Source: a phage. From it: DNA of 64,000 nucleotides. The notes beneath the pieces were generated by a model. The model did not search any database, was not told the origin of the DNA, and was given only the letters and a program-made list of their open reading frames with translations. Made by a program: the position numbers and the translations under genes. Position 1 is the first letter of the stretch. Each line of letters opens with the position of its first letter. Shown here one piece after another: positions 2,847 through 8,204 of the stretch. The DNA lies in the sequence record PX104378.1, one strand, 5' to 3'.

Positions 2847-2875
2847 ATTATAGGGGATCGATGATCCCCTGTCAA
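2847..2875 (-). promoter_or_regulatory. sigma70-type early promoter cassette
   Basis: minus strand TTGACA-GGGGATCATCGATCCCC(17)-TATAAT; palindromic spacer with two GATC. Confidence 0.6.
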
Positions 2876-2882
2876 CAACTTT

Positions 2883-3401
2883 TTAGTTATTTTTTAATTG
2901 CTCATCTTGCAATAAAGCAATCACATGCTGGCGATGTTCTTCCGATTGAGGCACACCGAAAAAGTTTGTTTTGTAGAAATACTCTAATCGGTCTTCTCGT
3001 GTGCTCTCTTCCATCATGATCGCGGGTAGTCCGAGATTTCGGAAACGTCGCTTTTCTGCTGGCGTAAAATCGCTGTAATACAGCATAGAATCATCATTAC
3101 CAGCAATGCTAAACTCATCCTTCATGAAGGAGAATATTGCGTTTAAACGCTGTTTACCGTCCACTATTTCGATTTCATAGCGAGAGCCATCATCAATCTT
3201 AGCCATTGCGATAGCACCAACCGGAAAATCATTAATCAGGTTTTCGATAAACATACGTTTGTTTTCGGTGTCCCATACCAAAGGACGCTGATAATCTGGG
3301 TTCATGTTGATATAGCCATCTTCTAACCACGCCTCATAAACAGAGATGACAAAGTTTTTAGTATTGGTATAGTAACGGCGTTTAGGAGTTAAACGGTTCA
3401 T
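2883..3401 (-). CDS. standalone DUF262 / ParB-like domain protein
   Basis: 172 aa; YQRPLVW and IVDGKQRLNAIF match the DUF262 QR..VW and DGQQR motifs; no DUF1524/HNH partner domain. Confidence 0.6.
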   Translation of the reverse strand: MNRLTPKRRYYTNTKNFVISVYEAWLEDGYINMNPDYQRPLVWDTENKRMFIENLINDFPVGAIAMAKIDDGSRYEIEIVDGKQRLNAIFSFMKDEFSIAGNDDSMLYYSDFTPAEKRRFRNLGLPAIMMEESTREDRLEYFYKTNFFGVPQSEEHRQHVIALLQDEQLKNN

Positions 3402-3577
3402 AGTGTGCTTACCTTTTCAATATATGCGTCCGCATACTGGCGAATGCTCATTTCTTCTCGTACTGCTGCTACAAATTCTTTCATGGATTCAAACCATTTG
3501 TAGGTGTCGCGATACATGACCAACTCTTCCCAAGTAAGATCGCAAATCTCTTTACCGTGTAGTTGTGGTGTTATCAT
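3398..3577 (-). CDS. small hypothetical protein (59 aa)
   Basis: ATGA start/stop overlaps with both neighbours (translational coupling); not in ORF track because under 60 aa. Confidence 0.4.
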   Translation of the reverse strand: MITPQLHGKEICDLTWEELVMYRDTYKWFESMKEFVAAVREEMSIRQYADAYIEKVSTL

Positions 3578-3912
3578 AATATAGTTCTCCTGAATGGATC
3601 ATCACGTAAATCAATATCTTTTAAGAACTCATCCCATGAATAGCGGATATTGTTCTTAATTCTCCAGATAAGCGCAGGGATTGAACGCTCTCCCATCTGG
3701 AAGTATGGATCGTATGATCCGTATGCCCAATATGCTACTACAATTCCACAATCAGCGCAATAGTATTCTATTTCACTTGCTGGCGACAAAAGTCCATCAA
3801 TATGATCAGTGATCTTGCTTTCGATGTTATGGCTATGACAATCAGGGCAACGGATGCAATGACCTTGTTTATCGTAATTTGACGTTAGCGAATACTTAAA
3901 CAATCTCATCAT
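3574..3912 (-). CDS. Cys/His-rich Zn-binding protein (112 aa)
   Basis: CIRCPDCHSH ... CADCG cysteine/histidine cluster; 4-nt overlaps with flanking genes. Confidence 0.5.
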   Translation of the reverse strand: MMRLFKYSLTSNYDKQGHCIRCPDCHSHNIESKITDHIDGLLSPASEIEYYCADCGIVVAYWAYGSYDPYFQMGERSIPALIWRIKNNIRYSWDEFLKDIDLRDDPFRRTIL

Positions 3913-4625
3913 AGATCCTTATTGGCTTCAAATACTGCCTTTGCGAATCCTCGCGGGGTAAGTGACCTGATAGTCTTTGTTCTGGTTCCTTTCCCGCCTA
4001 GCTTAGAATGCTGTTTACTGTACCCTTTCTCAATCGGCAACGGTTTCTTTTCTGGCATTATAAAGCCTTGTCCGGTCCATAAGCAAGTCTTTTTCGGGTA
4101 CATATCACGGGCGGCAATATACTCAGGAAACGTAGGATGTATATCATCTTCCGGCAAATAACCGCCATATTCCCACGGGTGGAACATGTAATCAGGCTTA
4201 CGCCACATGCTAGAGATAACGCTTACAGGATTCTCTATCATGTAGGGAACTCCTAGCCATTCACCCAAATAAGCGGTTATTTTAGCTGCCCGTACATCAT
4301 GAACTTGAATTAATGGTCCTTGCTCTCGTTTCTTTCGTTCAAAGTGTGCAGCGCCACTAACAGCTAAATTGGTACACGGTGGGAATGCAAAGATAATATC
4401 CGGTTTCCCCCATTCAAGGTCCATTGCTCTTTCCAGCCAATTCAAATCAATCCATGTGTTTACATAGGTAATGTTTGGATGTTCAAATCGGGTATTATAT
4501 TTTTTGTATGTACCGTGGTCGCCGTCGTCAGCATTGAAGCAGATCACCTTATGACCTGCTTTAGCCCATTCTAGCCCCATTATCCCCGATCCGTCAAAGT
4601 TGCAGAATATTAATTTTTGTTTCAT
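3909..4625 (-). CDS. truncated C5-cytosine methyltransferase-like protein
   Basis: 238 aa; FCNFDGSGIMG (motif I FxGxG), FPPCTNLAVSG (motif IV PC), YMIENP (motif VI ENV-like); no TRD or motifs IX-X. Confidence 0.5.
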   Translation of the reverse strand: MKQKLIFCNFDGSGIMGLEWAKAGHKVICFNADDGDHGTYKKYNTRFEHPNITYVNTWIDLNWLERAMDLEWGKPDIIFAFPPCTNLAVSGAAHFERKKREQGPLIQVHDVRAAKITAYLGEWLGVPYMIENPVSVISSMWRKPDYMFHPWEYGGYLPEDDIHPTFPEYIAARDMYPKKTCLWTGQGFIMPEKKPLPIEKGYSKQHSKLGGKGTRTKTIRSLTPRGFAKAVFEANKDL

Positions 4626-5155: not shown

Positions 5156-5184
5156 ATTGTAGGGGAGTTATCCTCCCCTGTCAA
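5156..5184 (-). promoter_or_regulatory. sigma70-type early promoter cassette
   Basis: TTGACA-GGGGAGGATAACTCCCC(17)-TACAAT on minus strand. Confidence 0.55.
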
Positions 5185-6192: not shown

Positions 6193-6501
6193 TCATTTAG
6201 ACAAATAATCATTCTGTGCAATCCGGTCGGCGTATGCTGGTGTTACGTCAATCGCAATCACTTTAACGCGTGCTTTCTTGCGACCTGGGTTTTCTCGTAA
6301 CCAGTGCTCATGACCGTGAACATTTTTATACTGCGATGCTTCTTCGAAGGTACGGATCGGACCTGGGTAATCAGCGTAAAGGATCTCTAGATCTTCGGTG
6401 ATGTAAAAATATACATCGTAATTGCTGTTCTCTAGCTTAAGCAGAGACTTTCGGAACATTGGGAGATTTTCGCGGGTAAATTCAAAGATATTATCTTTCA
6501 T
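6193..6501 (-). CDS. HxHW-family small protein, copy 1 (102 aa)
   Basis: HGHEHW ... VKVIAIDV motif shared with five paralogs; GAGGA SD. Confidence 0.6.
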   Translation of the reverse strand: MKDNIFEFTRENLPMFRKSLLKLENSNYDVYFYITEDLEILYADYPGPIRTFEEASQYKNVHGHEHWLRENPGRKKARVKVIAIDVTPAYADRIAQNDYLSK

Positions 6502-6515
6502 AGTATTATCCTCAA

Positions 6516-6536
6516 TAGTTGGATGAAAAGGGGGCT
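6516..6536 (-). terminator. GC hairpin terminator
   Basis: GGGGGC-TTAAC-GCCCCC followed on minus strand by UUUU. Confidence 0.55.
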
Positions 6537-6551
6537 TAACGCCCCCATATA

Positions 6552-6839
6552 TTAAAACAGTCCTTCTTGTACGCCGTAGTAGAGTTCGTCGCTGATAATT
6601 TCATTAATGCGACGGTGTGCATATTCCTGATTTGCGAAGTTGTCAGCAAGTTCTACTTTAGTTTCGCCGTCATGAGTCCATTTAGTGATAACTTTACCAT
6701 CTGCAAATTTGAAGTTGAACTCTTTAGCTACTGCATCGCGTACCAGACGTGCAAACTTGTTGTTACGGATTGCATTATCGGTTTCGTGTGCAGCGTGAGC
6801 AAATTTGTTAACTTTCAGCGTGATAGTGATGTATGCCAT
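6552..6839 (-). CDS. hypothetical protein (95 aa)
   Basis: ORF behind cassette leader TAGGAGAATCAAATTATG. Confidence 0.55.
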   Translation of the reverse strand: MAYITITLKVNKFAHAAHETDNAIRNNKFARLVRDAVAKEFNFKFADGKVITKWTHDGETKVELADNFANQEYAHRRINEIISDELYYGVQEGLF

Positions 6840-6885
6840 AATTTGATTCTCCTAGTTAGAAAGTGTATCTCGTTTCGATGGGTGT

Positions 6886-6914
6886 ATTATGCTATACACC
6901 CGATCTTATGTCAA
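6886..6914 (-). promoter_or_regulatory. sigma70-type early promoter cassette
   Basis: TTGACA-N17-CATAAT on minus strand. Confidence 0.55.
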
Positions 6915-6920
6915 CACTTT

Positions 6921-7199
6921 TTATAAAATAATTTTTTGATATTTTTCTATGATGTTCGTGTAATCCACATCAACCGCTATCACCGTTGCTTCGAATCCAC
7001 CGTTTAGCCAATGGCTATGGTCATGATCGTGAAAGAAACCAAGACCAGTACGAAGACCTTCTTTATATTCGGCGCGTACATTTAGATCATCATCGATAAA
7101 CAGATAAAACCATGAATTTTTACTAGGATTGATGATACAACCTTTCAGATTAGGGAGAATATCACGACTAAGAATAAACTTATCACCTACTTTGAACAT
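6921..7199 (-). CDS. HxHW-family small protein, copy 2
   Basis: HDHDHSHW ... TVIAVDV; start moved to internal ATG (MFKVGDKF) that has a GAGGA SD. Confidence 0.55.
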   Translation of the reverse strand: MFKVGDKFILSRDILPNLKGCIINPSKNSWFYLFIDDDLNVRAEYKEGLRTGLGFFHDHDHSHWLNGGFEATVIAVDVDYTNIIEKYQKIIL

Positions 7200-7203
7200 A
7201 ATA

Positions 7204-7524
7204 TTAGTCCTCACTTATAAGGTCAAACCAATTGTTTTTCGCATAATGCTTAATGCGTGCTTGATCTGCTTCTGCTGGTGATAGATTCCATGCAACCACT
7301 ACAACTTCTGACGCATCGTCATCCGTTTCTGATACCCAATGATTATGATTCATACAATTGTTTGCTATCGCGTGAGCAAATGATTTCATCACTGGAGACG
7401 TATAATCATAGTAACGGATTTTCAGATTTTCATCAACGTACAAATAGATCGTATAAGGTTTATATTCAGTAACCAGTAACAGACAGTTACGCAATTCTGG
7501 GAAAATATTTTTAGTTAATTTCAT
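7204..7524 (-). CDS. HxHW-family small protein, copy 3 (106 aa)
   Basis: NHNHW ... VVVVAWN; GGAGAA SD. Confidence 0.55.
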   Translation of the reverse strand: MKLTKNIFPELRNCLLLVTEYKPYTIYLYVDENLKIRYYDYTSPVMKSFAHAIANNCMNHNHWVSETDDDASEVVVVAWNLSPAEADQARIKHYAKNNWFDLISED

Positions 7525-7739
7525 ATTCTAGTTCTCCGTAATACACGGTAATCCATTTTTTCTTCATACTTTGTATCTTTCCAACACACAATCCCGTTTA
7601 CTGTGCAATCTTTGGAATTGACGAATGATTCATATTGTTCTGCATCTTCCATCATTGCATGAGCGGTCTTTTCATCGAATATATCGCAGATCGCTTTATA
7701 TGCTCGATAATCTTTAAATTTGCTCATAATTAAGACCAC
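7521..7739 (-). CDS. hypothetical protein (72 aa), tandem paralog A
   Basis: MSKFKDYRAYK... shares N-terminus and C..W..T.Y pattern with 7730..7939. Confidence 0.5.
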   Translation of the reverse strand: MVLIMSKFKDYRAYKAICDIFDEKTAHAMMEDAEQYESFVNSKDCTVNGIVCWKDTKYEEKMDYRVLRRTRI

Positions 7740-7939
7740 TCAAGAGTTTTTGAAAACACATCTATCCATTGTTGAGTATATGCGGTTTCTTTCCATGATA
7801 CAATACCAGTCGAATAATGGTTTTTGTTTCCAGAAAAGGACGGGCATTTTGAGGCATCTTCCATCATCTTTTCGGCGAACTCTGGTTCGTATACTCGCAA
7901 GATCTGTTGATATGCTTTATAATCTTTAAATTTGCTCAT
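7730..7939 (-). CDS. hypothetical protein (69 aa), tandem paralog B
   Basis: MSKFKDYKAYQ... paralog of 7521..7739. Confidence 0.5.
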   Translation of the reverse strand: MSKFKDYKAYQQILRVYEPEFAEKMMEDASKCPSFSGNKNHYSTGIVSWKETAYTQQWIDVFSKTLEWS

Positions 7940-8204
7940 AATTGTTAACTACCTTATCAGCTTCTTTTATTGTTTTTACATCAACTGCGATAATCCGTAA
8001 AGGTTCGTCGAAGGTCCACCAATGATCGTGATTATCAGCTTGTGATTTATCACCAAAGGAATCACGAATATCATTTTTACATTTATAGCTAATGTGACCT
8101 TCATAGTCAACATAAAGGTAATTATCAAAAATCGGCGTTTTTAAGATCATACCGAAAAATCTTTCTTTGTGTGTCTTATCCAGCGTTGCAGTAATTCGCA
8201 TCAT
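7926..8204 (-). CDS. HxHW-family small protein, copy 4 (92 aa)
   Basis: DNHDHWW ... RIIAVDV; AGAGGA SD. Confidence 0.6.
   Translation of the reverse strand: MMRITATLDKTHKERFFGMILKTPIFDNYLYVDYEGHISYKCKNDIRDSFGDKSQADNHDHWWTFDEPLRIIAVDVKTIKEADKVVNNYEQI

Follow-up and report, generated by a model that had tools for sequence, protein, structure and literature searches.

The 64,000-nucleotide (nt) stretch of phage DNA analysed here (sequence record PX104378.1; hereafter the window) encodes, on its minus strand at 2883..3401, a protein of 172 amino acids (aa) which, judged from its sequence, is a complete but stripped-down ParB-DUF262 core of solid domain identity. Our preferred, still tentative, reading is that this protein acts as an autonomous nucleoside triphosphate (NTP)-gated switch of the ParB fold, encoded by an accessory conflict gene used in early infection. 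The DUF262 domain family is well known; the stand-alone phage clade to which the protein belongs is newly delimited and is common.

The open reading frame (ORF) runs from ATG to TAA and fills the interval exactly. A sequence-only reading of the same DNA, which gave no strand, had proposed a DUF262/ParB-like protein that lacks a nuclease partner domain, and both parts of that description were borne out. The product (20.5 kDa and isoelectric point (pI) 5.05, as calculated) matched Pfam PF03235 (GmrSD_N, formerly DUF262) with E=4.1e-20 and 73.2 bits vs a gathering score of 33.2, so the failure to match any DUF262/ParB profile that had been contemplated did not occur. This alignment spans profile positions 5-105 of 199 only. 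PHROG 1583 (phrog_1583, function unknown) was matched with E=4e-53 over positions 9-183 of its 417-position profile, and PADLOC placed residues 13-150 on positions 47-188 of the 385-position NsnA profile (E=1e-20), a span covering all three DUF262 motifs. No NCBIfam model was found for the protein. Searching the PDB with the single 172-aa sequence was insufficient, yielding only chance-level matches to sliding clamps, and a profile search of PDB sequences was needed to recover DndI (9jfl), an 818-aa DUF262 protein, BrxU (7p9k) and SspE, all with large insertions relative to the phage protein. Pfam detected no DUF1524, HNH or other nuclease domain in the 172-aa protein and no nuclease match in the six flanking ORFs.

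To establish the extent of the family, 1.84 billion cluster representatives were searched exhaustively with a profile, which gave 17,138 matches at E <=1e-3, and thousands of metagenomic proteins share the minimal domain; architectures were judged on the best 150 representatives, with E no worse than 1.5e-27. Two architectures were seen among these, a short class of about 160-190 aa in which the domain stands alone and a long class of about 270-290 aa in which the mini-DUF262 domain sits at the C-terminus, behind an N-terminal extension, and none of the 150 carried a C-terminal DNA-binding or nuclease module. PF03235 was the sole Pfam domain in all members checked, including the few with short C-terminal tails. 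The window protein continues for 16 residues beyond its last conserved block, the family median being 11-12 (256 members), and a length of 160-190 aa is kept across hundreds of phages at 30-56% identity. A fragment of a longer gene was ruled out by the lengths and architectures of the relatives. The sequence-only reading had named as its own undoing a full-length, nuclease-bearing counterpart in close relatives; these are short or extended at the N-terminus only, and never full-length GmrSD.

The extension of the long class, about 85-130 aa in length, is a conserved domain with the motifs vGd.V, IGaNPF and LeSIlf and found no match in Pfam. Structure prediction gave, with high confidence, a Tudor/SH3/KOW-like beta-barrel fused to the mini-DUF262 core. 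Examples are a protein encoded at 7001-7861 of one metagenomic locus (P0029 of L014) and about 146 related metagenomic proteins.

The window itself belongs to a Krischvirus (RB49/Phi1-like), with 97-98% identity to phages kaaroe and FL04. Utilizing tblastn, homologues were found in 306 phage records, and all those inspected were about 160-177 aa long; a protein of equal length and at least 95% identity was present in 57 records, reaching 99-100% identity in other Krischvirus genomes. Carriers include RB16-like, Slopekvirus-type Klebsiella, Morganella, Pectobacterium and Erwinia phages and the temperate Salmonella phage ST64B, and, at greater distance, phages of Bacteroides, Sinorhizobium, Brevundimonas, Moraxella and Tenacibaculum. 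Klebsiella, Escherichia and Enterobacter phages of the therapeutic type commonly carry a member of the family. Public labels of the homologues are inconsistent, ranging over 'hypothetical', 'ParB-like partition protein', 'chromosome partitioning protein' and 'DefenseFinder protein' (PP889466.1, PQ187642.1, Pantoea phage Phynn protein P0178), and several records already name the gene 'DUF262 domain protein'. The partition labels were not supported, as there is no ParBc match, no helix-turn-helix (HTH) and no ParA partner.

All three DUF262 motifs are intact in the window protein. As defined in the Menshen paper (PMC12065111), these are QRxxxW, DGxQR (the nucleotide-binding centre) and FxxxN. 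The QR..VW and DGKQR motifs named in the sequence-only reading are present within YQRPLVW (residues 37-43) and VDGKQRL (residues 80-86). In an alignment of the window protein with six relatives at 35-56% identity, the three motifs were invariant, as was a clade-specific block, GVPQSEEH, that directly follows the third. Across 256 family members, QRxxxW was retained in 255 and DGxQR in 248 (as DGKQR in 244), and the strict pattern G[VIL]PQSxEH occurred in 159. Residues conserved in at least 95% of the short class are confined to the motifs and the GVPQSxEH block and include F142, N146, G149 and H156; V150, P151, Q152 and S153 are conserved at 80-95%. FYKTN, the third motif, aligned with FIRMN of BrxU in a profile alignment (domain 2; not significant alone).

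The 172-aa protein has the ParB/sulfiredoxin (Srx) fold. When its AlphaFold2 (AF2) model was compared with the PDB by Foldseek, ParB/Noc N-domains, DndI, PadC, KorB, BrxU and sulfiredoxin were retrieved with weak E-values, and many uncharacterised viral models of a 'GmrSD N-terminal domain' were matched with E down to 6e-9. The model has one terminal helix (residues 154-171), and its confidence (predicted local distance difference test, pLDDT) falls below 50 for residues 1-24 and 26-28, within a basic N-terminal tail; short-class tails have a median pI of 8.4. A DNA-mimic reading was disfavoured, the protein being only mildly acidic and having a folded ParB core.

Comparison with phage W115 revealed nine synonymous and one non-synonymous codon differences in the gene, which is therefore under purifying selection. 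On the sequence evidence the clade is old and was seen only in phage-type contexts in every case examined, with DGKQR and GVPQSxEH as its signature. No nucleotide-level relative was present in 5,426 complete E. coli genomes, and recent capture from E. coli was rejected on that ground. Since the clade is old and phage-specific, its NTP-binding residues are almost perfectly conserved and no nucleotide relative was found in E. coli, the gene has little in common with a host enzyme that was captured of late and is now decaying.

All ORFs that flank the gene in the window were compared all-against-all with those at six distant loci (ST64B, RB16, PMBT1, Morganella Mm5, POP12 and Erwinia SNUABM_01). 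Of the window ORFs, only the DUF262 gene was common to any of the six, and no dedicated partner gene was conserved across the seven loci. Because it is the only ORF shared and its neighbours have unrelated distributions, we conclude that the gene travels from phage to phage alone, as a single-gene cassette.

In the mechanism that we propose, binding of NTP in the Box I-III pocket would drive the ParB core to self-associate, as it does for BrxU and for the N-domains of ParB. Nucleic acid or a host factor would be engaged by the mildly basic N-terminal tail or, in the long class, by the Tudor/SH3/KOW-like barrel instead, and NTP hydrolysis would reset the switch. The protein would serve in phage-host or phage-phage conflict during early infection, without cleaving DNA itself. 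The model is drawn from the intact ParB-type pocket and the established behaviour of the fold. Consistent with it, the protein is not a fragment (its length, the family architectures, PF03235 as the only domain and an end about 11-12 residues past the last motif in the family), the pocket is intact and under selection (motif conservation and the 9:1 ratio of synonymous to non-synonymous differences), autonomy is indicated by the one ORF common to the six distant loci, and the contexts are those of phages, with an early-type promoter in the window. There is also a precedent, in that short single-domain ParB-fold proteins of phages have been proposed to be independent units (PMC12704722).

Several points weigh against the switch. 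The AF2 model is of moderate quality (pLDDT 72) and its best Foldseek E-value against the PDB is only 8.6e-3, and we infer NTP binding, dimerisation and nucleic-acid binding of the phage protein from homology. Since N-terminal parts are only mildly basic across the family (median pI about 8.3; 50-61% above pI 8), nucleic-acid binding is weakly supported, and Tudor/SH3 barrels bind proteins too. The invariant polar PQSxEH beside the pocket could mean that the protein acts catalytically on a substrate instead of simply switching, and the conflict role, although probable, is based on genomic location only.

The sequence-only reading had suggested that a DUF262 protein lacking its nuclease half might serve as a decoy or dominant-negative partner of GmrSD-type enzymes that attack modified T-even DNA. 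Generalized, this becomes a free ParB-DUF262 head that heterodimerises in an NTP-dependent manner with host DUF262 immune proteins, or vies with them for a ligand or partner, so that sensing is uncoupled from the effector; we regard it as unlikely, if a serious competitor. Candidate targets would be Menshen NsnA, PD-T4-2, Dazbog, BrxU/GmrSD, SspE/DndI and DUF262-Schlafen, to whose sensor domain the phage protein is homologous. NsnA was the best PADLOC match in every member of both classes (7/7 and 75/75; 82/82 in total), PD-T4-2_A was second for the short class, and the GmrSD-type profiles HEC-05/06 and SspE were far weaker (HEC-05/06 with E about 1e-3 for the window protein), a ranking that sits poorly with a specific link to GmrSD. 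The T-even rationale likewise does not suit a Krischvirus, as RB49 has neither hydroxymethylase nor glucosyltransferase genes and its DNA contains neither hydroxymethylcytosine (hmC) nor glucosyl-hmC (PMC4041780). Lacking hmC, the RB49 lineage is not a GmrSD substrate, and GmrSD itself is not its problem. Record names, moreover, suggest that the gene is essentially absent from the very numerous T4-type (hmC) coliphages: 'Escherichia phage' is the name on 55 of the 306 carrier records, and the Krischvirus region was matched by 47 records with Escherichia in their name. What survives of the sequence-only reading is thus a genuine nuclease-less DUF262/ParB-fold protein, without the GmrSD/T-even logic. 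The DNA-end binding that it had offered as another role may also apply.

Other observations bear on such mimicry from both sides. The gene is an early accessory phage gene, and one relative (in L014) lies two genes downstream of a Tad2-like gene. DUF262-DUF262 partnerships exist, since GmrS1, which has ParB_n only, pairs with GmrSD2 in bacterial type IV systems (PMC12373910), and orphan homologues of defence components are reported as counter-defences in T4-like phages (PMC11825919). The window gene shares its transcription unit with a Dcm-like methylase, and a phage C5-methylase has been reported to elicit a response from Dazbog, itself a DUF262 system (bioRxiv 10.1101/2022.08.27.505566); this adjacency, however, is specific to Krischvirus. 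An ancient clade spread over phages of Bacteroides, Sinorhizobium, Brevundimonas, Moraxella and Enterobacteria with a strongly conserved pocket is a poor fit to the mimicry of one fast-evolving host protein. Relatives that carry any C-terminal module are met only below the best 150 representatives, and E. coli genomes hold no relative at the DNA level. T4 IPI*, an inhibitor of the GmrSD family, is a small, injected phage protein and is not known to be a DUF262 homologue. Other GmrSD-family inhibitors that we met (T4 Ip proteins, PMC12373910; an enterococcal phage protein, PMC11322646) are likewise described as small or injected phage proteins rather than DUF262 homologues. Extended to the whole mini-DUF262 clade, the idea would make it a widespread, previously unrecognised class of counter-defence proteins, which either poison DUF262 systems (those like Menshen/NsnA first) by NTP-dependent dimerisation of the ParB type or soak up their ligand, a proposal that we consider speculative and improbable.

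A second alternative, doubtful but deserving attention, is that the protein is an autonomous enzyme whose NTP pocket serves the phosphorylation, nucleotidylation or cleavage of one particular molecule of the host or phage, be it a protein, a nucleotide, tRNA/RNA or DNA, in the manner of Srx, SerK, ParB-like nucleases or Osa. The clade-specific, near-invariant polar block PQSxEH lies beside the NTP pocket, with H156 conserved in at least 95% of the short class, the single-domain architecture resembles that of Srx (PMC12704722), and the pNOB8 'ParB domain protein nuclease' was among the structural matches. Genes for RNA ligase, RtcB, Thg1, Tpt1, CCA-adding enzyme and NudE also recur near relatives, but they are not conserved partners and are in any case common in the accessory regions of large phages. 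The catalytic GCHR cysteine motif of Srx is missing and DGKQR stands in its place, and the DUF262 domains characterised to date are described as NTPase sensors or regulators and not as effectors (PMC12065111).

It is quite unlikely that the gene is instead a phage-borne exclusion or defence module, one that senses the DNA of a competing phage (e.g. modified T-even DNA) and blocks it through an effector supplied in trans by phage or host. Many defence systems use DUF262 domains as sensors, the Klebsiella-phage homologues are labelled 'DefenseFinder protein' by annotation pipelines, and temperate phages and prophages carry the gene, as in ST64B and a Salmonella cluster of 366 members. Most carriers are strictly lytic, however, no effector gene co-occurs across the loci compared, and the ST64B gene lies in an early-left lytic operon between the repressor region and int rather than in the position typical of a moron expressed in lysogens. 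Finally, a decayed remnant of a full-length GmrSD-type gene (a pseudogene fragment) is effectively refuted, for although the PF03235 alignment covers only the first half of the model and PHROG 1583 only positions 9-183 of 417, the 160-190 aa length has persisted over hundreds of phages at 30-56% identity with three motifs intact, and the gene is under purifying selection, with its own AAGG Shine-Dalgarno-like sequence and start and a promoter directly past its stop.

Features of the DUF262 gene and its surroundings in the window.
Feature	Coordinates	Strand	Evidence
Stand-alone minimal ParB-DUF262 coding sequence	2883..3401	minus	ORF list, Pfam, PHROG, PADLOC, Krischvirus comparison, W115 comparison
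N-terminal basic tail, residues 1-28, pI 9.4	3318..3401	minus	Low AF2 confidence
DUF262 motif I QRxxxW = QRPLVW, residues 38-43	3273..3290	minus	Translation; invariant in seven-sequence alignment; 255/256 family members
DUF262 motif II DGxQR = DGKQR, residues 81-85, predicted phosphate-binding centre	3147..3161	minus	Translation; invariant in alignment; 248/256 members
DUF262 motif III FxxxN = FYKTN, residues 142-146	2964..2978	minus	Invariant in alignment
Clade-specific block GVPQSEEH, residues 149-156, directly after motif III	2934..2957	minus	Invariant in alignment
Sigma-70-type (T4 early-type) promoter, TTGACA-17-TACAAT, 11/12 matches	5156..5184	minus	Sequence match
Dcm-like DNA methyltransferase, 238 aa	3909-4625	minus	PHROG 757 'DNA methyltransferase', E=1e-90
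Zn-ribbon protein, 112 aa	3574-3912	minus	Sub-threshold Zn_Ribbon_TF match
59-aa ORF between Zn-ribbon and DUF262 genes	3398-3577	minus	ORF list
Perfect sigma-70 promoter, TTGACA-17-TATAAT, 12/12 matches, 8 nt past DUF262 stop	2847..2875	minus	Sequence match

Between 5115 and 2883 the ORFs all point the same way and mostly overlap at their start/stop junctions, and for this reason the promoter at 5156..5184 most likely heads a single transcription unit that holds the DUF262 gene. On the minus strand the order is promoter, an 83-aa ORF, an 81-aa ORF, the Dcm-like protein, the Zn-ribbon protein, the 59-aa ORF and the DUF262 gene. The co-transcribed upstream neighbours of the latter occupy 3398..4625 (minus), where PHROG 757 and PHROG 2993 were matched. 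The perfect promoter leads into a 70-aa ORF followed by an Alt-like ADP-ribosyltransferase gene, so that one unit ends and the next opens here. Its 17-nt spacer is almost filled by a G+C-rich inverted repeat, GGGGATCATCGATCCCC; W115 retains the repeat with altered central bases and paired changes, GGGGGATCGGTGATCCCC. Terminator, operator and promoter could be united in the site at 2847-2875, where the DUF262 unit gives way to the gene that follows. As read from this arrangement, the region is a typical T4-type early accessory array, and early expression of the DUF262 gene would be expected.

The neighbours were considered as possible partners. The family of the Dcm-like methylase occurs in 1,526 phage records, mostly from phage types whose genera were not seen among the DUF262 matches; a functional partnership was rejected on this different distribution and on the methylase near the Erwinia homologue being unrelated. 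The 238-aa protein has no Pfam-A match and no sequence relative in the PDB; FDGSG, PPC and ENP motifs were seen by eye. HpaII, called methylated-cytosine-sensitive, cuts RB49 DNA (PMC4041780), making the activity and specificity of this short methylase-like family uncertain. The Zn-ribbon protein was rejected as a hidden HNH partner, given its sub-threshold Zn_Ribbon_TF match and a different distribution, its family occurring elsewhere only in 9g-like and Felix-O1-like phages. The 59-aa ORF, which has no Pfam or PHROG match, is a 177-bp insertion missing from W115, and it probably accounts for most Krischvirus records covering 92-93% of the region vs 100% for kaaroe and FL04.

Further along the minus strand, 6193-8204 contains tandem small paralogous ORFs (6193-6501, 6921-7214, 7204-7524 and 7926-8204) whose translations share a His-rich 'H.H.HW' motif followed by '(V/I)IA(V/I)DV', and a second paralogous pair (7521-7739 and 7730-7939) begins 'SKFKDY(R/K)AY'. 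Elsewhere, metagenomic relatives of both classes are found on large phage-like contigs, where small genes of one direction form long arrays. At six loci (L003, L004, L007, L008, L014 and L016) in unrelated large phages, genes for RNA repair and nucleotide metabolism recur no more than a few kb from the homologues, namely RNA ligase, RtcB with DUF488, Thg1, HD_4, Tpt1 (PTS_2-RNA), tRNA nucleotidyltransferase (CCA-adding enzyme) and NudE. As none of them is conserved with the neighbours in the window, their recurrence may be due simply to accessory regions held in common.

DUF262/ParB-type NTPase heads are the sensing modules of GmrSD/BrxU, SspE/DndI, Menshen, PD-T4-2, Dazbog and DUF262-Schlafen. 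Literature searches found no functional study of a stand-alone phage DUF262 protein and no paper in which this phage clade is described, and the GmrSD phylogenomics paper contains no discussion of such proteins. The large clade delimited here keeps the nucleotide pocket and discards the rest, in two architectures of which one bears a Tudor/SH3-like barrel. If its members antagonise or imitate the sensors, they would represent a new counter-defence principle and a simple probe of DUF262 sensor switching; if they are autonomous switches or enzymes, they would offer the family its smallest working DUF262 unit, well suited as a model for its biochemistry.

Among known systems, NsnA has the best-matching defence profile and the same QRxxxW, DGxQR and FxxxN pocket as the phage protein (PMC12065111). 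NsnA, however, is about 385 aa long with an obligatory C-terminal ParBDB DNA-binding domain, whereas the phage protein stops right after the ParB core, ending 16 residues past GVPQSEEH with no helical middle (ParBDB-like) domain. NsnA also shares its operon with an ABC ATPase, NsnB, and an effector, NsnC, while the phage gene has no NsnB/C-like neighbours; in the window it is accompanied by genes for methyltransferase-like and Zn-ribbon proteins, by small ORFs and by Alt. GmrSD, BrxU and SspE (560-820 aa) carry DGQQR rather than DGKQR, and their motifs are separated by large insertions; they also have a helical domain in the middle and a nuclease of the DUF1524/HNH type, and the phage protein lacks all of these. 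No nuclease was found in the protein, its six flanking ORFs or its longer relatives, and none is supplied by a conserved neighbour; the GmrSD substrate, glucosyl-hmC DNA, is absent from the RB49 lineage (PMC4041780).

Canonical ParB is resembled at the level of the fold only, there being no PF02195 (ParBc) or HTH match in the protein and no parA-like gene beside it. Sulfiredoxin has its catalytic cysteine in GCHR, whereas the equivalent loop of the phage protein reads DGKQR and its entire 172-aa sequence is free of cysteine; the Srx structure 3hy2 was a weak structural match to the model (E=0.87). A survey of the ParB-CTPase fold (PMC12704722), which searched PF02195 only, regarded short single-domain phage proteins as possible independent functional units without assigning a function to them; the window protein, by contrast, has no match to the profile through which those proteins were found.

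GmrS1 of ECOR17 (PMC12373910) is, like the phage protein, a DUF262/ParB_n protein without a nuclease, and is functional as a partner; it is bacterial, however, and adjoins and depends on the GmrSD2 nuclease gene, whereas no such neighbour was present at the phage loci examined. DndB is likewise a nuclease-less NTP-binding protein of the ParB/DUF262 type and acts by binding DNA rather than cleaving it, but its greater size, its helical domain at the C-terminus and its tie to dnd genes are features that the phage protein does not share. According to PMC12704722, the NTP specificity of ParB-fold proteins is not predictable from sequence. The roles that this survey describes for the fold differ between proteins: in ParB, NTP drives the engagement of N-domains; in BrxU and SspE, it controls the oligomeric state and gates the nuclease; and PadC, Srx and SerK serve as adaptors or enzymes.

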